50,356 nucleotides of DNA from a virus (Duplodnaviria; Caudoviricetes): IMG/VR virus record IMGVR_UViG_3300048823_000117, positions 1 to 50,356 of that record. The stretch is one strand, 5' to 3'. This document shows, piece by piece, positions 6,569-48,366 of this stretch (position 1 is the first letter of the stretch; every line of letters starts with the position of its first letter). The translations under genes and the position numbers were made by a program. The notes below the pieces were generated by a model. That model made no database searches. It was not told the origin of the DNA and was given only the letters and a program-made list of their open reading frames with translations.

Positions 6569-7204
6569 TTAAGTACTAACACTTGCAGTCGCCGTCGATA
6601 CGCCACCAAGGCTATCGACGATGGTTACTTCCAGTACACCGTTGACTGGGCTAGCCAAGGCGAACAGTTGGGTACCGACTGAATTGGGGGAGAGAATCTG
6701 AATCCCTGCCCCGCCGGAAGCCCAGGTCCAGTTAATCGACGTCACAAACACACCTTGACTCGGATCCCCCGCGTCAACCGAAGCGACCCAAGGGGGTAAG
6801 ACCGCAGCCGCAAACCCCTGGAACGATCCCGCTTCAGTTACCAGGTCACTCCCTCCTTCAGTAGTTAGGAACGATCCGACTTCAGTCGTGATTGGGGTTT
6901 CGCCCATCTCGGCGAGCTGAATTACATTCGGCCTGATGACGAGGGGGAAGCCTAGATTGAGCTGCCGGAAGTTAACAATCGGGGGCTGTACCCTCGGTAC
7001 CGACATATGCTCAGGGATTCCCCGGACGAACTCTTGAGGGTGTCGGCGGTCGGCGTGCTCAGGACAGCACCACATCTTTCGGGCGAACTCGTCGTCAGTT
7101 ATGAGTTCGTTCGATTTCCTTTTCCTGCCACAGTATGCACACATGACGTTCCAGGCGCCAAGTTCAAGGAAATCGCGGCCTCCTTTTGTAAAGCCGTTAC
7201 CCAT
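6569..7204 (-). CDS. Conserved phage virion-associated protein (N-terminal CxxC..CPEH..HPQ zinc-binding motif)
   Basis: CAYCGRK...WCCPEHADRRHPQ motif; internal ITTEVGSFLTTEGGSDLVTE repeats. Confidence 0.55.
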   Translation of the reverse strand: MGNGFTKGGRDFLELGAWNVMCAYCGRKRKSNELITDDEFARKMWCCPEHADRRHPQEFVRGIPEHMSVPRVQPPIVNFRQLNLGFPLVIRPNVIQLAEMGETPITTEVGSFLTTEGGSDLVTEAGSFQGFAAAVLPPWVASVDAGDPSQGVFVTSINWTWASGGAGIQILSPNSVGTQLFALASPVNGVLEVTIVDSLGGVSTATASVST

Positions 7205-8522
7205 CAGAGTAGCTCATGCTACGGGCGTAGCCTAAAGACTGCAGTAATGGCAATTCCCCCGCTAACTTCCTGCCCACGTCGGTGCGCATCATTCGGTTAG
7301 AAGGCCACCGAACCCCCCACGCAACGCCATATGCGGCCATAGCGGCCGATTCTACCGTAGGACCGCTTCCTGTGACCACCGCCACGTACGTCCCCGCCGT
7401 TGTGAGACATCGCCTGTGACGGAGGTTTCCATCGTCGTCGATGACTGGTTCCATGCCCATCCGCACCATCTGCCAGTGGATGTGATTCGCCGACTCCTCG
7501 TCGAAGTGTATCGGGAACCCAGACCACTTCTCGTGCGGGTCGTTTGAGATTGGGTAGTCGCCGTGGGTCATTACAACGCCGACTGCGATATCAGGTCGGG
7601 GGTTAAACTCATCCCGGCCGGCAAGCATCGCTGCCATCCACTCGACAGGGTCGTGGTCGATTACCTCTTGGCGGATGTTGAAGTCAGGCCAGCCTAACCT
7701 CGAGGTGAACTCCAACGGCCACGGCGTTCCGTCCGAGTCCACAATGCAGTTCACCGAACAATCTCCCACATACCCAATCTGGTACAGGTAGTCCGTCAAG
7801 GGCTTCAGCACCCGGTCGAACAGCAGAGATTCCTGCACGTGCCGCAGGACGGTTCCCTGCTCGCCGGTGTTCTGCCCCAGGTCGTCGTTGAGGAAGCGTT
7901 TGTGTTCCCAAGATTCCTCCACCATTCGCAACCAGCCCGACTGCGGGCTAAACCAGCCGGCAATCCCGACCTCCACCCCGTCGGCTTTCTTCTGCAGCAT
8001 GAGCTTGCTGTTCAGCCCGGCGTCCCTCCACCGTTCGAGTTGGAAAATCGCTTCTTCCGGCGAATTGGCGACACAGGTAAGGGACTTATCGCCTTCCCCT
8101 CCCCAGGGCTTGATGACAACTGGCTCCCTCGAGGCGACGACATACTCAATTGCATCATTGAGATTCTCGACAGTAACATACGGCAGAATCTGAACTCCTT
8201 GAGACTGGAGCACTTGCTGTCCGAGAGCCCGGTCAAGTTCAAGCTGCGCGCTCGCCGCATTGGCGCCAAAGATAGGGTAACCAGATTCAAAGTACGGTTC
8301 GAGTTTGTTGGCATAGCGAGAATTCCCGTTGACGATTACCAAATCGCTCCCGTCCATTAAGGGTTCCCAGTCTCGCGGGCGATCAACCAGCCCCTCGCCG
8401 AAGGTTAGTTCTTGGCGGCTGGGCGGTAGCCAGTACCTGACATCATGCCCCCACTCCTTCGCTCGCAGGGCGATTCCCAGCCCCGTTGCCTCGCCCTCGA
8501 CTTCGATGATCAGTATTCTCAC
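7197..8522 (-). CDS. PurD (GAR synthetase)-like ATP-grasp ligase
   Basis: AQLELDR, PVVIKP, EHKRFLNDDLGQNTGEQG (cf. PurD DHKR..GPNTGGMG), PLEFTSRLGWP, TAGTYVAVVTG, MMRTDVG. The PurD N-terminal GxGGREHA motif is absent. Confidence 0.85.
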   Translation of the reverse strand: MRILIIEVEGEATGLGIALRAKEWGHDVRYWLPPSRQELTFGEGLVDRPRDWEPLMDGSDLVIVNGNSRYANKLEPYFESGYPIFGANAASAQLELDRALGQQVLQSQGVQILPYVTVENLNDAIEYVVASREPVVIKPWGGEGDKSLTCVANSPEEAIFQLERWRDAGLNSKLMLQKKADGVEVGIAGWFSPQSGWLRMVEESWEHKRFLNDDLGQNTGEQGTVLRHVQESLLFDRVLKPLTDYLYQIGYVGDCSVNCIVDSDGTPWPLEFTSRLGWPDFNIRQEVIDHDPVEWMAAMLAGRDEFNPRPDIAVGVVMTHGDYPISNDPHEKWSGFPIHFDEESANHIHWQMVRMGMEPVIDDDGNLRHRRCLTTAGTYVAVVTGSGPTVESAAMAAYGVAWGVRWPSNRMMRTDVGRKLAGELPLLQSLGYARSMSYSDG

Positions 8523-32862: not shown

Positions 32863-33436
32863 CCGAGACGTCGGGAGACTGGTTGAGGTTGCGCAGATTG
32901 TCGCGCAGCTGATGCAGGTGCAAGTGCATATCCACCCGCTGCGGGGTGCCGGGCAGGTCCCGGGCGCCGTAACCGAGGAGCTTCGAGGTCATCTCGGCCG
33001 ACTTGATGATTAGCTGAGGAGGAATGAGTTCCTCGGGCTGGTCGAGCTTACTCGCCAATAGCCGAAGGCTATTCTTGAGAATCCCCCGGGCTTCTTCCTC
33101 GATCGAGGCGAACCGGAGCTTAAACGCCGCCTGGCGCTCGGGCTCGATTGACTTCTCGATTCGATCCGCAAGGCGGACCTGGAATGCGTCGCTGGCGATC
33201 AGCCGGCTGAGGTAGCTCTGGGTATAGCCAAGGCGCTTGGCCAGCTGCCCCTGCGTCTCGGTCGGGGGGCTAAGTAAGAGCGCATCAACGATCTGCTCAT
33301 AGGTCAACGAGACTGTAGTTATTGGTGGCAACCTAGCCGAGGCGGCTGGACTGGCACCTGATACCTGCGGGGCAGACGGTTCGTCTGGGGGTGATGCGAT
33401 CCCCAGTAGGCTTAACGTCCCTGCGGTGCCGTCCAG
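32813..33436 (-). CDS. Putative terminase small subunit / HTH protein (CTG start at 33436 proposed; ORF track start 33331)
   Basis: HTH TQGQLAKRLGYTQSYLSRLIASDAFQ; first gene of the late arm; the frame is open to a CTG preceded by GGGGAGAAGGGA. Confidence 0.6.
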   Translation of the reverse strand: MDGTAGTLSLLGIASPPDEPSAPQVSGASPAASARLPPITTVSLTYEQIVDALLLSPPTETQGQLAKRLGYTQSYLSRLIASDAFQVRLADRIEKSIEPERQAAFKLRFASIEEEARGILKNSLRLLASKLDQPEELIPPQLIIKSAEMTSKLLGYGARDLPGTPQRVDMHLHLHQLRDNLRNLNQSPDVSDAEIVVKSAASGAAGG

Positions 33437-33710: not shown

Positions 33711-33805
33711 TGGCAGGACCCGCAATGTTCGAGAAAGCCTGGTACACTTTTACTGTGGGCGAATTATTTGCCCCCCAGGCGGCCCAGTCAGCGGGCGACC
33801 CTGGC

Positions 33806-34031
33806 TGCGGCAGTGCAACAAGCTAATGCGAATGATTATCAATCGCAGTCGCTAATGCGAATGATAATCATTCGCAGTCGCATTAGCATTAGCAATTGCG
33901 CTTGACTGTGCTAGTGATGTAGCACACCAGCCTACTACATAGCTACTCATGTAGGCTGCTACACTACCACTAGGCTAGACGGCTGGCCTGTTGCAGCGCC
34001 GCATGAACGCGGTTCAGGGTGCAGTGCGACA
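33806..34031. promoter_or_regulatory. Three PhaR-like TGC-rich pseudo-palindromes (33806-33820, 33989-34003, 34017-34031)
   Basis: TGCGGCAGTGCAACA, TGTTGCAGCGCCGCA (inverted near-copy of the first) and GGGTGCAGTGCGACA, all close to TGTTGCAnTGCAACA. Confidence 0.45.
33822..33879. promoter_or_regulatory. Two tandem 29-bp repeats, each containing a Fur box
   Basis: GCTAATGCGAATGATTATCAATCGCAGTC and GCTAATGCGAATGATAATCATTCGCAGTC. The second is a perfect 10-1-10 palindrome matching 15/19 of GATAATGATAATCATTATC. Confidence 0.75.
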
Positions 34032-34150
34032 ATCCATGCGGTCGATGGCTGGTATCACTACGATGGATTATCCAGCCGATGGATAGCTATCATTCGTCAG
34101 ATGGATAATCCATCGCGTCGATGGCTGGTATTCGTGGAACGAATGGCGAG

Positions 34151-34999: not shown

Positions 35000-35032
35000 G
35001 GGCCTGGGGATTGACGATTAGTCCCCAGGTCC
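35000..35032 (+). terminator. Strong hairpin after the early gene (terminator or processing stem)
   Basis: GGGCCTGGGGATTGA-CGA-TTAGTCCCCAGGTCC followed by a weak U tract. Confidence 0.5.
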
Positions 35033-35051
35033 ATGTTGTTATCAACACCTA

Positions 35052-35205
35052 TCATCATTATCCCGAAACAACATACGGGCCTTATTTCGGCGGCCGGGTT
35101 CCTTGTTCCTTTTAATATATTCTCTTTCAGATAGAACACTCAAAACGCAAAATGACTGAGCGGGGGTATAAAAGAGGATCGTATGTTGTATCGGGATGAT
35201 AATGA
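35052..35205. repeat. 26-bp imperfect inverted repeat enclosing an AT-rich core (origin candidate)
   Basis: TCATCATTATCCCGAAACAACATACG (35052-35077) versus CGTATGTTGTATCGGGATGATAATGA (35180-35205), 23/26. Confidence 0.65.
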
Positions 35206-35241
35206 GGTTGTTAAGACTATATCAACCATATCATTACTTGG

Positions 35242-35270
35242 TTGACAACACCATACGGCCGTGGTACAAT
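35242..35270 (+). promoter_or_regulatory. Sigma70 early promoter P3
   Basis: TTGACA-17 nt-TACAAT with extended TG. Confidence 0.8.
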
Positions 35271-41131: not shown

Positions 41132-41307
41132 TGTACGAGCCCATCTTCAACCTCGAATGCGTCGAATGCGATTCCGAACCTGTCGTCGGCATCCGAGACG
41201 ACGAAGGTTCGCTCCGCTGCACGCACCTTTGCGGCAGCTGTTTTTTCAGTGACCGCAGCATGAACGACTGGGACCTCTGGAACGAACCTCAGGAGTCTAC
41301 AGAGTGA
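41131..41307 (+). CDS. Small CxxC-CxxC protein (58 aa, not in the ORF track)
   Basis: Hand translation MYEPIFNLECVECD..LCGSCFF..; coupled on both sides. Confidence 0.6.
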   Translation: MYEPIFNLECVECDSEPVVGIRDDEGSLRCTHLCGSCFFSDRSMNDWDLWNEPQESTE

Positions 41308-41537
41308 CCGACGAAGAGGCCAACTATACCAAGGTCGCCGACGGAGTCGACGCACTAATGGCCAAGATCTACCCAGGGAGTAAGTTCCTCGTCGTCACCG
41401 TCTGGGTCTGCGAAGCAGAGGCCTGGGTCCACGTCGCCTCGAATAGCAAGATGATGGCGCTGAAGTTACTAACCGACGCCAAGGATTGCATCGAAGGTAA
41501 CATCGGCTACGCACCTATAAGGAGCCTGGATTCATAA
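41304..41537 (+). CDS. Hypothetical protein
   Basis: AGGAG RBS, GTGA coupling. Confidence 0.55.
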   Translation: MTDEEANYTKVADGVDALMAKIYPGSKFLVVTVWVCEAEAWVHVASNSKMMALKLLTDAKDCIEGNIGYAPIRSLDS

Positions 41538-41538
41538 A

Positions 41539-41667
41539 CTGATAACTCCTAAGAGACGGGCCTGGCTCTCAGTCCCAATGAGTTGCGACCTGGGCGTAAT
41601 GTGCGAGTTGGCCCAGGCACGTGTGGTGGACAAGCCATAATTAGGCCCGTCTCTTAGTAGTTAACAG
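41539..41667 (+). ncRNA. Candidate structured RNA (long closing stem with three internal hairpins)
   Basis: CTAAGAGACGGGCCT (41549-63) pairs with AGGCCCGTCTCTTAG (41643-57). Inner arms CTCA/TGAG, CCTGGGC/GCCCAGG and TGTGGT/GCCATA; loops GTCC and GGAC are complementary. Confidence 0.65.
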
Positions 41668-41684
41668 CAGTAAGGAGGACGACG

Positions 41685-41942
41685 ATGGACGTTAAGCGAC
41701 TTAACATCTTCGCAACCGAAGATGAGATCAAGTATATAAAGCATTGCCAGTCAATGCCTATCATGGCATTCACAAACCCAGGACCACCAGGGCCAGGGGT
41801 ATCGCCAGTTATTCCCCTGAGCGAAGCCCCGATTAAGGCAGTTCACCGAGCAGCTCTCGCCCACGGTCTGCCGGAGATCCCTGGTTACTACGGTATCGAC
41901 TTGACGAATGGTGAATTCGTGACTGTCGAAGGAGCAGAATGA
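41685..41942 (+). CDS. Hypothetical protein
   Basis: TAAGGAGG RBS; HGLPEIPGYYG. Confidence 0.7.
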   Translation: MDVKRLNIFATEDEIKYIKHCQSMPIMAFTNPGPPGPGVSPVIPLSEAPIKAVHRAALAHGLPEIPGYYGIDLTNGEFVTVEGAE

Positions 41943-42844
41943 TGTTTCCAGAAGTCATAGATAGCTCCATGATGGCCTCCTTCAAGGAGTGCCCGGCGAA
42001 GTTCAAGTTACAATACATCGAGGAGTGGAAACCCCGGGGCATCTCGACTCACCTCCACGCGGGTGGAGCGTTCGCCCACGGCCTGGAAGCCTCTCGTCGG
42101 GCGTTCTACGAACAGGACGTCAGTAGCGACGACGCTCAGGCCATTGGAATCGACGCCCTGTTGCGCTTCTACGGCGATCACCGGCCGCCGGACTTCGGCA
42201 CCGCCGCGAACAAGTCCGCGATCCGAATGGCCGGCGCGCTGGAGTTTTATTTTGCTAACTACCCACTGAATCACGACAGCGCCTACCCTGTCATCATGCC
42301 TGGAGGCAAGCGTGGAATCGAATTCAACTACACTTATCCCTTGGGGATTGACCATCCAGAGACAGGACAACCAATCCTGTACACAGGACGATCTGATGGG
42401 ATATTCCAGTTCTCTGGCGGAACCTACATATTCGACGACAAGACTGCCAGCCAACTCGGACCAACTTGGGCAAAGCAATGGAAGTTACGAGCACAGTTTT
42501 CAGGGTACTGCTGGCTCGCACAGAAATGCGGAATCAAGGTTGATGGTGTTGTTGTGCGCGGTGTGTCGATACTGAAGAACTCCTACGGCACGGCCGAGGA
42601 CATTTCGTTCCGAGGCGAGTACATGCTCACCACGTGGGAGGCCGAGTTATTGACCTGGATCGCGATGATGAAGGAATGCTACCGAACCGGCCGCTGGGTT
42701 CATAACTTCGACCATGCCTGCAGTAACTACGGCGGCTGCGAATTCGACTCCATTTGCGACATGGAGGAGCCGAAGCCGTTCCTCGAACAGTCCCACGAGC
42801 GCCGACATTGGGACCCGATCACCAGAATTGAAACTAAATTGTGA
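41939..42844 (+). CDS. PD-(D/E)XK exonuclease, Cas4/RecB-like
   Basis: SMMASFKECP, GRSDG..DDKT, QFSGY, C..YGGCEF..IC (four Cys for an Fe-S cluster). Confidence 0.85.
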   Translation: MMFPEVIDSSMMASFKECPAKFKLQYIEEWKPRGISTHLHAGGAFAHGLEASRRAFYEQDVSSDDAQAIGIDALLRFYGDHRPPDFGTAANKSAIRMAGALEFYFANYPLNHDSAYPVIMPGGKRGIEFNYTYPLGIDHPETGQPILYTGRSDGIFQFSGGTYIFDDKTASQLGPTWAKQWKLRAQFSGYCWLAQKCGIKVDGVVVRGVSILKNSYGTAEDISFRGEYMLTTWEAELLTWIAMMKECYRTGRWVHNFDHACSNYGGCEFDSICDMEEPKPFLEQSHERRHWDPITRIETKL

Positions 42845-44307: not shown

Positions 44308-44687
44308 TCCACCTCCGCCTACCGACCGAGCACTCCTTCCTCTGGGTCTGCCCACAGTGTTCCACCACCTGGGCAGTCCTGGACTCATCCTTCGGCGGCA
44401 AGGCGCATTTCTTCCTACACGCCGAGTGCGAGTCCTGTGGCGGCGGAATCCTAACTTGCGACTTCTGGCTCGACCAGAACCCGCTCGACGACACCCTTAG
44501 CAACATCCTAGCAGTCCTCCCCTACGACATGCTCGTCCGGGAGGTTCGTTTATACTTGGAGGAACTCTTTGATGAACGTACAGGCCATCCCTTCGTCCAG
44601 CAGCCTCTCAACGCAGGCATCTGGAACGACGACCTCCCCCGCACCAGCGGATTCCTCAATTCTCAAGGGAGTGAAAGTACTCCTTGA
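44304..44687 (+). CDS. Zinc-finger hypothetical protein
   Basis: CPQC..CESC. Confidence 0.5.
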   Translation: MIHLRLPTEHSFLWVCPQCSTTWAVLDSSFGGKAHFFLHAECESCGGGILTCDFWLDQNPLDDTLSNILAVLPYDMLVREVRLYLEELFDERTGHPFVQQPLNAGIWNDDLPRTSGFLNSQGSESTP

Positions 44688-45483
44688 AGGCCCAGCCGGC
44701 ACGGGGAAGACCCACGCCCTTGGCACCCTGGTGGACACAGGTCTCGAGGTATTCTACCTATCGATCGATTCTGGCAGAGAATCGCTGGTCGGCTATTACA
44801 CCGATCGACAGAAACCCGTACCGGCTAATTTGCACTGGCACGACATCGAGACCGCCGACTGGTCGTTCGAGACGATGATCGCAGCAGCGAACAACACGCT
44901 CAACCTCACCTACGAGTCCCTGACCAAGGTCTCCGACCCGTACAAGTCCCAGTACAACCAGTACGTAAAGATGCTAACCGCGTTGCACGACTTCCCTGCC
45001 GACGACTTAGGCGGGAAGAAGTTCGGCGATGCAAGCACTTGGGGAACGAATCGAGTATTAGTGATTGATAGCCTGTCGGGCGTCAATACCTGCGTCATGT
45101 CAATGGTAGTTGGGACTAAGCCCGTCGTTAGCCCCGGTGAATGGCAAATCGGGATGCAGCATATCGAGAAGCTTGTCAAGAAGTTCATGTCGATGCGCTG
45201 CCATATGGTCTTAATCGGCCATGTTGAGCGAGAAATCGACGAAGTGGAAGGCGGGACGAAGATCACTGTCAGCACCCTTGGCAAGAAGCTCGCACCGAAG
45301 CTACCGAGCCTGTTCGGCGATGTCATAATGGCACAGCGAAAAGGTGCTACTTGGATGTGGTCTACAGCGAATTCGCAGTCGGATCTCAAAACGCGAAACC
45401 TGCCCGTCGCCGAGGGCATCAAGCCCGACTTCGGGCAGATCATCAGCAAGTGGGAATCCCGAGGTGGAAGGAGAACCCCATGA
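44569..45483 (+). CDS. Sak4-like (AAA_24) ATPase / single-strand annealing recombinase
   Basis: GPAGTGKT, VLVIDSLS, VLIGHVE, LGKKLAPKLPSLFGDV, DLKTR; located with an exonuclease and an SSB. Confidence 0.8.
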   Translation: MMNVQAIPSSSSLSTQASGTTTSPAPADSSILKGVKVLLEGPAGTGKTHALGTLVDTGLEVFYLSIDSGRESLVGYYTDRQKPVPANLHWHDIETADWSFETMIAAANNTLNLTYESLTKVSDPYKSQYNQYVKMLTALHDFPADDLGGKKFGDASTWGTNRVLVIDSLSGVNTCVMSMVVGTKPVVSPGEWQIGMQHIEKLVKKFMSMRCHMVLIGHVEREIDEVEGGTKITVSTLGKKLAPKLPSLFGDVIMAQRKGATWMWSTANSQSDLKTRNLPVAEGIKPDFGQIISKWESRGGRRTP

Positions 45484-46870: not shown

Positions 46871-47047
46871 TTGAAAAAGTGTTACCATTGCAAACGCATA
46901 ATCTGGCCGTGGCAGGCTCGTTCGTACAGCACGATACCAGAGCACAAACGGTGCGCTGTATTAGCGTTCATCCATGATGCTTACAGAGATCTCCCTATTA
47001 CACAGGCAAGTAACCAAATTGCCCTGTACAGGGAGAGCCAAAAGTGA
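46871..47047 (+). CDS. Small Cys/His hypothetical protein
   Basis: CYHCKRIIWPWQ..HKRC. Confidence 0.5.
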   Translation: MKKCYHCKRIIWPWQARSYSTIPEHKRCAVLAFIHDAYRDLPITQASNQIALYRESQK

Positions 47048-48366
47048 AAGTCCATCTGATCGACTTCGAAGAACTCCACATCGAGGAGGGCCGGCAACGA
47101 AAGGACATCTCCGCTGAGGCGATCCTCGAACTGGCCGGCAGCATAACCCACAACGGCCTGATCCACGCTTGTGTAGTCCGCCTTGACGACGAAAACCGAA
47201 CTGTCCTCGTCGCAGGCGAACGTCGTGTAAAAGCGATGGAATACATCTGGAATTTCGGCCAGTCGGTTCGCTATGGCGAATACGATATACCTGCTTATAA
47301 GATCCCGTGTAACTACCTCGGCGAGATCGACCCGATAGCGGCGTTCGAGATTGAGCTTGAGGAAAATATTCGACGTAAGGATATAAGTTGGCAGGAGAGA
47401 GCCCAAGCGGTCGCTCGCCTGGCCAAACTTAAATCTGAACTTGAAGGGGAAGAGCCCTCACCGGCGAGGCTCGCCGAGACCCTAGGGCTGTCCGTCAGTG
47501 GTGGCGGTGGGGGCACCCCTGCCCAAGACGTCCGACAGGACCTCATCCTCGCTCGCCATATGGCCGACCCGGATATCGCGAAGGCGGCTAGCCGGTCGGA
47601 TGCGTTTAAGATCCTCAAGCGCAAGGAAGAAGTAACCCAGAACGCCGCCCTCGGCGCAGCGATCAGCACTCAGACCCTCGCCAACGAGCATAAGCTCCTA
47701 AAGGGGAACTGTCTTGAAATCCTACCTACCCTCCCTGATGCTAGCTTCGACGTTATCCTTAGTGATCCTCCTTATGGCATGGAAGCCCAGGACTTCGGGG
47801 ATTCCGGCGGAACGGGTGGTGCAGTGGGCGGGCACTTCTACGACGACACCCACGACAACTGGATCCGTCTCATGTCTGGCTTGGCAGCAGCGATCGACCG
47901 ACTCGCCAAGCCTCAAGCGCACTTATACCTGTTCTGTGACATCGACAGATTTGCGGCGCTGCGAGATTTCATCGGCGCCAGTGGCGTGTGGAAGTGCTTC
48001 CGCACCCCGCTGATTTGGTTCAACCCAGGAGGTTCTCGTGCACCTTGGCCACAAAACGGACCCCAACGTAAGTCGCAGTATATACTCTATGCTGTCCGGG
48101 GTTCAAAGCCTGTTATTAGTATGCTTGGCGACGTCCTTACTCACGGAAGCGATTCTAACCTTGGACACCACGCACAGAAGCCTGTATCGTTATATAACGA
48201 TTTGCTTCGCCGTAGCGTGCGCCCTGGAGATTCCGTGCTGGATCCTTTTTGCGGGACTGGTACGATCTTCCCGGCCGCCCACGCGCTGAAATGCAAAGCA
48301 ACGGCAATCGAAATGGACGACATGGCCCTTGGAATAGCAGCCGCCCGGCTGAAGGAACTAAAGTGA
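47044..48366 (+). CDS. ParB-like N-terminal domain fused to an amino (N6A/N4C) DNA methyltransferase, beta class
   Basis: RQR..ELAGSI..GLIH..LVAGERRVKA..ELEENIRR and an HTH-like region; SDPPY, HHAQKP, VLDPFCGTG. Confidence 0.9.
   Translation: MKVHLIDFEELHIEEGRQRKDISAEAILELAGSITHNGLIHACVVRLDDENRTVLVAGERRVKAMEYIWNFGQSVRYGEYDIPAYKIPCNYLGEIDPIAAFEIELEENIRRKDISWQERAQAVARLAKLKSELEGEEPSPARLAETLGLSVSGGGGGTPAQDVRQDLILARHMADPDIAKAASRSDAFKILKRKEEVTQNAALGAAISTQTLANEHKLLKGNCLEILPTLPDASFDVILSDPPYGMEAQDFGDSGGTGGAVGGHFYDDTHDNWIRLMSGLAAAIDRLAKPQAHLYLFCDIDRFAALRDFIGASGVWKCFRTPLIWFNPGGSRAPWPQNGPQRKSQYILYAVRGSKPVISMLGDVLTHGSDSNLGHHAQKPVSLYNDLLRRSVRPGDSVLDPFCGTGTIFPAAHALKCKATAIEMDDMALGIAAARLKELK

Follow-up and report, generated by a model that had tools for sequence, protein, structure and literature searches.

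An intergenic element of 129 bases, at positions 41539-41667 in the genome of an uncultivated peat phage, is closed by a long stem that is real and not a product of chance. The small hairpins within that stem are no more stable than shuffled sequence. We tentatively interpret the element as a lineage-specific cis RNA structure of the early mRNA, in which the duplex of about 24 bp may serve as an RNase III-type processing or stability site. We hold this reading at somewhat under even confidence. Here, we describe the element and its distribution, and then weigh that reading against other explanations and against the known systems that it resembles.

Genomic setting of the element

The window (the whole stretch of DNA that was analyzed) is the complete virus record IMGVR_UViG_3300048823_000117, 50,356 bp in length with direct terminal repeats, and the runs that hold it are peat and permafrost metagenomes. 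A minus-strand block from about 3.8 to 33.3 kb consists of large genes, mostly without a family, and presumably encodes the structural proteins; a GARS-like ATP-grasp protein is also encoded within it, at 7197-8522 on the minus strand. The plus-strand block, which runs from about 34.5 kb through the genome end to 3.4 kb, carries small early genes together with replication and recombination genes. Recognizable proteins of the phage include a family A DNA polymerase, a DUF3987 protein, a UDG-like protein and a DUF7352 protein, and the first recognizable gene of the recombination module is that of a PD-(D/E)XK exonuclease. The element and its neighbors are laid out as follows.

41304..41537, plus strand: upstream 77-aa ORF, without a PHROG or Pfam match; its stop codon (41535-41537) lies 1 nt before the element
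41539..41563, plus strand: 5' arm of the closing stem, part of an inverted repeat that is unique and beyond chance
41565..41586, plus strand: predicted hairpin 1, 2+4 bp with a 7-nt loop, GUCCCAA
41589..41617, plus strand: predicted hairpin 2, a 7-bp G+C-rich stem (CCUGGGC/GCCCAGG) plus 4 weak pairs, with a 6-nt loop
41622..41639, plus strand: predicted hairpin 3, 6 bp including 2 G-U pairs, with a 6-nt loop, GGACAA
41643..41667, plus strand: 3' arm of the closing stem, the inverted-repeat partner of the 5' arm
41672-41678, plus strand: Shine-Dalgarno (SD) sequence AAGGAGG, 5 nt 3' of the stem and unpaired in the minimum free energy (MFE) fold
41685..41942, plus strand: 85-aa ORF of no known family, missing from one strain variant (X4, see below)
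41939..42844, plus strand: PD-(D/E)XK exonuclease (phrog_1218, 3.2e-10; PF12705, 6.2e-06)
44569-45483, plus strand: Sak4-like/AAA_24 annealing protein (phrog_124, 3e-18; PF13479)
47044-48366, plus strand: ParB-N domain fused to an N6/N4 DNA methyltransferase

All genes around the element lie on the plus strand, and the element occupies the 147-nt gap that separates the end of the 77-aa ORF from the next start codon (ATG, 41685), which agrees with an earlier first-pass annotation of the sequence in which the structure was said to fill the intergenic gap before a strong ribosome-binding site. A consensus scan found no plus-strand sigma-70-like promoter in the element and no terminator-like site at 41539-41690. 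An intrinsic terminator was rejected on the same scan and on the absence of a T-run, the stem being followed by CAGTAAGGAGGACG. Given the co-directional ORFs, the lack of promoter- or terminator-like sites and the lack of a T-run, the element is most simply part of a polycistronic plus-strand mRNA. A peptide reading was rejected, as the longest internal ATG frame is 20 codons long and has no SD sequence. Stop codons are present in all six frames of the core.

Anatomy of the element

The two arms are 25 nt long and 92% complementary (23/25), with 79 nt between them. In the plus-strand MFE fold they form 15 contiguous Watson-Crick pairs (41549-41563 with 41643-41657) plus a terminal G-U pair, and the stem reaches outward by a further 5 bp and then 3 bp across the mismatches C41548/A41658 and A41542/A41664. 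The predicted closing helix thus contains 24 pairs over 26 positions, namely 23 Watson-Crick pairs over 25 positions and the G-U pair. It encloses a four-way junction with the three predicted hairpins listed above. On these points the first-pass annotation, which had noticed a perfect 15-bp closing stem extendable on both sides and three hairpins inside it, was correct.

The minus strand folds just as well (-65.7 kcal/mol, z -6.49), keeping the long stem and hairpin 2, the sole inner helix that it also forms, and losing the three-hairpin interior. The plus-strand fold includes five G-U pairs, and the three-hairpin fold is therefore specific to the transcribed strand. Loop 1 contains GUCC, which is complementary to GGAC in loop 3. 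The element was also said to lack TTCGA and CCA; TTCGA is indeed absent and no CCA forms the 3' end, but CCA occurs three times internally.

One further complementarity concerns the downstream ribosome-binding site. At 41546-41550 the 5' arm reads CUCCU, the complement of AGGAG, the core of the downstream SD sequence (41673-41677), while the counterpart of this stretch in the 3' arm reads AGUAG rather than AGGAG, this being the position of the C/A mismatch. As far as the letters go, the 5' arm could conceivably pair with the SD sequence instead once the long stem was opened or cut.

Significance of the fold

A 161-nt plus-strand segment folds at -65.7 kcal/mol (z -4.74), and none of 200 shuffled versions was as stable. 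An inverted repeat of 23/25 with a spacer of 30-200 nt occurs once in the window, and the best inverted repeats in 60 first-order Markov simulations reached only 18-20 of 25. When the genome was scanned for folding in sliding segments of 150 nt, with correction for G+C content, the element came second in structure, behind only the repeat-rich stretch at 33.7-34.1 kb.

The interior is a different matter. Folded alone (41565-41641, 77 nt), it gives z -1.62, with 14 of 200 shuffles equaling it, and the minus strand gives z -0.89; the inner hairpins are no more stable than shuffled sequence. The 4-nt match of GUCC to GGAC has a probability of about 0.042 for the pair of loops 1 and 3 and of 0.11 for any of the three pairs of loops, so that the complementary loops are present as first described and stand at chance level. 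In sum, the main point of the first-pass annotation, the very long closing stem, is real, and the cloverleaf, the elbow-like loop pairing and the tRNA shape were overstated.

Other structured regions of the genome

Other parts of the genome are structured as well. The most structured and repeat-rich stretch, 33726-34115, holds several overlapping inverted repeats. It separates the minus-strand block, whose end is at 33331, from the plus-strand early genes, and an origin or a divergent control region is a candidate role for it. A second long-stem element, at 35040-35215, is built on a repeat (35052-35205) with 36-nt arms that are 81% complementary and have 82 nt between them, and it folds at -59.8 kcal/mol (z -5.70). 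It is flanked by a terminator-like hairpin (35000-35032) and by the best sigma-70-like promoter of the region (35242-35270, 11/12, with a TG extension), and minus-strand promoter-like sites are found inside it. This second element may serve the early operon as an operator or control region. A kinship between the element at 41539 and that at 35052-35205 was considered and rejected: the two do not align, and their shared 8-mer, ACGGGCCT, is a chance match (3 matches versus 2.07 expected).

Near-identical strains and a mosaic hot spot

Near-identical copies of the element were found in three other peat or permafrost samples (runs X2, X3 and X4). A 481-nt contig from X3 spans 41466-41946 with 20 differences and no gaps, and a contig from X2 begins within the element, at 41592. 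The contig from X4 matches 41491-41670 with 8 differences and then skips 41671-41968, which includes the whole gene for the 85-aa protein; 39 other letters stand there instead, and these include a ribosome-binding site and the beginning of the exonuclease gene. In X4 the element therefore adjoins the exonuclease gene and ends 15 nt before its ATG. The element is thus found in two gene contexts, in each of which it ends 15-17 nt before a start codon, and the block shared with X4 ends at 41670, 3 nt past the stem.

The left side is also variable. X4 passes from 41289 to 41305 with 197 other letters between, X2 skips 41289 to 41469, and an X2 contig diverges after 41488. With whole-gene differences on both sides, the region 41289-41969 is a mosaic hot spot within the early region.

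Among the differences listed (40 of 141), G41625A in X2 is the only one within the element; it would put A-C in place of a predicted G-C pair in hairpin 3, and no change at 41636 is among those listed. The element segment is less diverged than its flanks in X2, X3 and X4. Recent common ancestry within a mosaic stretch could account for this lower divergence, which provides no evidence of selection. A single contig from a metatranscriptome run (X5) covers 42130-42396, outside the element; contigs of this kind cannot show RNA ends.

Distribution among relatives

A set of 66 related loci was gathered by way of the exonuclease, the 85-aa protein and a 76-aa protein encoded two genes upstream, with exonuclease relatives drawn from viral, metagenome and genome collections; the 77-aa ORF and a 59-aa ORF had no relatives in viral contigs. 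Neither the element nor a comparable gap is present in any of the 66. In none of the 14 assessable viral relatives does a gap of more than 30 nt precede the exonuclease, most of them showing a 4-nt overlap (by mechanical ORF calls), and in nine relatives of the 85-aa gene no free gap precedes the gene. The closest relative with upstream sequence (L035), whose exonuclease is 82% identical at the N-terminus, has different upstream genes, a 4-nt overlap with the exonuclease start and no element.

Direct searches for the element gave a consistent result. A blastn search against a phage database left it unmatched, an 18-nt pattern had no matches in IMG/VR viral contigs, and the exact two-arm pattern was found neither in those contigs nor in the genomes of about 186,000 species. 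A blastn-short comparison with 44 loci returned only matches of 11-15 nt (best E 0.42). A covariance model (R1), built from the element alone with its sequence entered twice, recovered only itself from the window plus 59 loci (363 kb) and nothing from 7 further loci (36 kb). Inverted repeats with arms of at least 18 nt at 90% and a spacer of 60-100 nt were absent from all of the 34 loci screened out of the 44, duplicates and very short loci having been set aside, and from 7 loci added later. Judging from these comparisons, the element is an orphan of one sub-lineage, without diverged homologs. The relatives are compact and coupled at this junction, and the sub-lineage would therefore appear to have gained a gap and an independent strong SD sequence in place of a compact coupled junction.

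Exonuclease relatives at loci L048-L062, with 38-57% identity, were found on contigs of about 20-46 kb that belong to metagenome-assembled genomes (MAGs) labeled Acidobacteriota, Gammaproteobacteria, Bdellovibrionota, Verrucomicrobiota, Actinomycetes, Planctomycetota, Nitrospinota and Saccharibacteria. Since many of these contigs are probably of phage origin and ended up in the bins by accident, they do not establish the host. A search of 401 genomes from the class of the best-matching MAG, a weak guess at the host, gave chance matches of 20-43 nt in 26 of the 401 (E<=0.1) and never the whole element.

A putative RNase III-type site

The substrate of RNase III is a dsRNA helix of about two turns, which corresponds to some 20 bp or more. 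The first-pass annotation had suggested that the stem is RNase III-like and that the element might regulate the recombination genes in cis. That suggestion holds up insofar as the helix is long enough to be a plausible substrate and lies in cis before those genes, and it forms the core of the model that we tentatively favor. An early plus-strand polycistronic transcript would run through the element, and the 25-nt arms would pair in vivo to form a helix of about 24 bp, approximately two turns of dsRNA, just 3' of the stop codon of the 77-aa ORF. This helix would terminate 5 nt short of the free SD sequence of the next gene. RNase III would then cut or shield the message between the small early ORFs and the recombination module, which consists of the 85-aa ORF, the PD-(D/E)XK exonuclease and the Sak4-like annealing protein. 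The stability and translation of the two mRNA halves would thereby be uncoupled; in relatives, the same genes are translationally coupled through their overlapping stop and start codons. The three inner hairpins would probably reflect no more than the way a G+C-rich spacer of 77 nt folds, and cutting of both stem strands would free them as a by-product.

This RNase III model is supported by the unique 23/25 helix, which is beyond chance (fold z -4.74), and by the constant position of the element before a start codon in two gene contexts. The co-directional setting with no promoter- or terminator-like site, the unpaired SD sequence, the compact junction of relatives and the specificity of the full fold for the transcribed strand also speak for it. 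By analogy, it may also draw support from the Correia elements, as they are described in the cited part of PMC2649163. Several points count against it. The closest exonuclease relatives occur in MAGs of many phyla and so point to no one host whose RNase III specificity could be consulted. Conservation is limited to near-identical strains, the classical phage sites are simple hairpins and not four-way junctions, and the equally stable fold of the minus strand would also fit a role at the DNA level.

If the element is indeed a processing or stability signal, a phage sub-lineage has rewired a coupled gene junction by gaining one palindromic element, and the junction would be independently controlled at a spot where close strains swap whole genes. 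The element is a well-defined orphan and does not open a long-standing question.

Alternative explanations

A mobile, MITE-like origin is compatible with a role in RNase III processing, and the leading alternative is that the element has such an origin and no role at all: a functionless or selfish palindromic insert, either MITE-like or a scar left where mosaic segments were joined by illegitimate recombination, which would have come to rest and been tolerated between two abutting genes and whose folding as RNA would be a side effect. We consider this possible, if unlikely. Its dimensions are those expected of such an insert (129 bp, with 25-bp terminal inverted repeats around a non-coding core of 79 nt), the interior is not more structured than chance, and it is confined to one sub-lineage, the genes of relatives abutting or overlapping at the junction. 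It also sits in a highly mosaic stretch with whole-gene insertions or deletions on both sides, and the right border of the block shared between strains falls 3 nt after the inverted repeat. Correia elements, in the cited part of PMC2649163, have a comparable size and layout and are found in a prophage region as well. Other observations count against an insert. The phage has a single copy, and no copies were found elsewhere (in genome or viral contigs, in the phage database, or in the 401 genomes), which is a weak objection given that these searches were strict or relied on a guessed host. Nor is there a target-site duplication: the flanks read ...CATAAA, then the element, then CAGTAAGG..., with no direct repeat abutting the arms.

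The equal folding of both strands raises the question of whether the element acts as DNA, for example as a structured single-strand initiation or origin signal or as a binding site for a phage protein. Both strands fold equally well because the signal is an inverted repeat, and the phage does encode replication and recombination proteins of its own, including the family A polymerase, the DUF3987 protein, the Sak4-like protein, the exonuclease and the fusion of ParB-N with a methyltransferase. Relatives with the same replication and recombination genes do without the element, however. The element has no iterons, no A+T-rich tract and no repeats elsewhere, and the cumulative GC skew has its minimum at about 22.5-24.5 kb and no extremum near 41.6 kb. 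The stretch at 33.7-34.1 kb is far more repeat-rich and is the better candidate for an origin or control region. Extrusion of a cruciform from duplex DNA is improbable with a spacer as long as 79 nt. On balance, a DNA-level site seems rather improbable.

It is likewise improbable that the long stem serves to excise a discrete trans-acting noncoding RNA, whether a tRNA mimic or decoy against anticodon nucleases, as the first-pass annotation had proposed, or a self-associating form like the pRNA of phi29. A double-strand cut in the 24-bp helix would free a capped four-way-junction RNA of about 100 nt, and the three-hairpin interior, found on the transcribed strand only, would present two loops (1 and 3) with 4 complementary G+C-rich bases. 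Precedents for the separate parts of this idea can be named: in Y RNAs a long terminal stem is joined to a tRNA-like domain, as set out in the cited part of PMC4201824, and pRNAs kiss loop-to-loop between molecules, as set out in that of PMC4201828. The interior of the element is at chance level, however, both in its stability (z -1.62) and in its loop match (P 0.04-0.11), and the G41625A change of X2 weakens hairpin 3 with no compensation among the differences listed. ARAGORN and Rfam (tRNA, Y RNA, pRNA, riboswitch, ribozyme) were negative, there is no T-loop or GNCGAA motif and no TROVE/Ro60 protein among 45 ORFs, and the element is missing from all relatives. The idea of a tRNA mimic, in particular, is not supported.

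The most far-reaching version, in which the stem would release a stable RNA of about 100 nt whose GUCC/GGAC pairing gives a tRNA-elbow-like fold or a pRNA-style multimer of a new trans-acting class, would place a trans-acting RNA, such as a decoy for host RNA-targeting defense or an assembly RNA, at the head of the recombination module, and we regard it as highly improbable.

Comparison with known systems

Two of the checks against known RNAs that had been proposed along with the first-pass annotation, ARAGORN and Rfam, gave negative answers. ARAGORN found no tRNA or tmRNA gene across the whole window, in keeping with the earlier statement that the element is not a tRNA. A search of 1.2 kb against Rfam 15 at E<=10 gave no match in the element; at the same threshold, 41520-41690 (171 nt) gave two chance matches only, a Tetrahymena snoRNA and osmY (E 6-7), and nothing in the whole window reached the gathering score of any of the 4227 families. 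By these sequence and covariance-model comparisons, the element is outside all described RNA families. Riboswitches and self-cleaving ribozymes were rejected with no Rfam aptamer or ribozyme model matched, and a P1-like helix of 24 bp would presumably be unable to switch.

The likeness to a tRNA is one of topology only, in that both have a four-way junction with three hairpins and a terminal helix. The element differs in its terminal helix, the supposed acceptor stem, which has about 24 bp versus 7; in lacking T-loop and D-loop consensus sequences and a 3' CCA; and in its middle arm, which has no anticodon-type 7-nt loop on a 5-bp stem. Its loops had been likened to those of a tRNA elbow, but none of them carries the T-loop motif, and loop 3 is 6 nt long.

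The Y RNAs of bacteria and phages, as presented in the cited part of PMC4201824, have a long terminal stem and a tRNA-like domain, and YrlA has a T-arm and a D-arm with tRNA-like conserved bases, carries the motif GNCGAAN0-1G and adjoins the gene for Ro60/Rsr. The element shares with them a long end-to-end stem that bears a multi-hairpin domain. Membership in the YrlA group was rejected: CGAA is absent from 41539-41667, so that there can be no GNCGAA, and no Rfam match was obtained. No TROVE/Ro60 protein was found among the 45 ORFs scanned with Pfam, a set that left out ORFs of less than 150 aa outside 39-48 kb.

The element resembles the pRNAs of the phi29 family in that its two ends pair into a terminal helix, several helices meet at a junction, and two loops share a short Watson-Crick match. 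Rfam, which presumably includes a model for these RNAs, gave no match, and the loop match of the element is at chance level; a phi29-type pRNA was rejected on these grounds. The pRNAs multimerize by intermolecular loop-loop kissing, according to the cited part of PMC4201828. The phage itself is not phi29-like, with a genome of 50 kb, direct terminal repeats and a family A polymerase, and the element shows a complementarity of only 4 nt where phi29-type pRNAs pair between molecules into a ring on the portal.

A closer likeness is to the Correia elements of Neisseria (CREE/NEMIS) and to similar MITEs (ERIC, BOX, RUP), which are intergenic, measure about 100-160 bp, have inverted repeats of about 25 bp and often lie 5' of genes. 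The cited part of PMC2649163 describes how the transcribed inverted repeats of Correia elements form a hairpin in the mRNA that RNase III binds and either cleaves or protects, and how its action on the repeats alters the expression of the adjacent gene. Correia elements differ in number, with at least 100 copies in a genome, and in having TA target sites and a conserved core, joined in some cases by an IHF site, whereas the phage element has one copy, no visible target duplication and no sequence similarity to them.

In position, the element also resembles the RNase III sites of other phages. Sites of this kind punctuate phage early polycistronic mRNAs, as in the R sites of T7 and T3 and the N-leader and sib sites of lambda. 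Both are structured and intergenic, both fall between a stop codon and a ribosome-binding site within an early operon whose genes share one direction, and both have a helix of about two turns. Classical phage sites, however, are single hairpins with internal loops, often cut in one strand, whereas the element is a predicted, near-perfect helix of 24 bp capped by a four-way junction. The element is best classed as a new orphan among the palindromic, long-stem elements that lie between genes of phage operons, and it may well act through RNase III.
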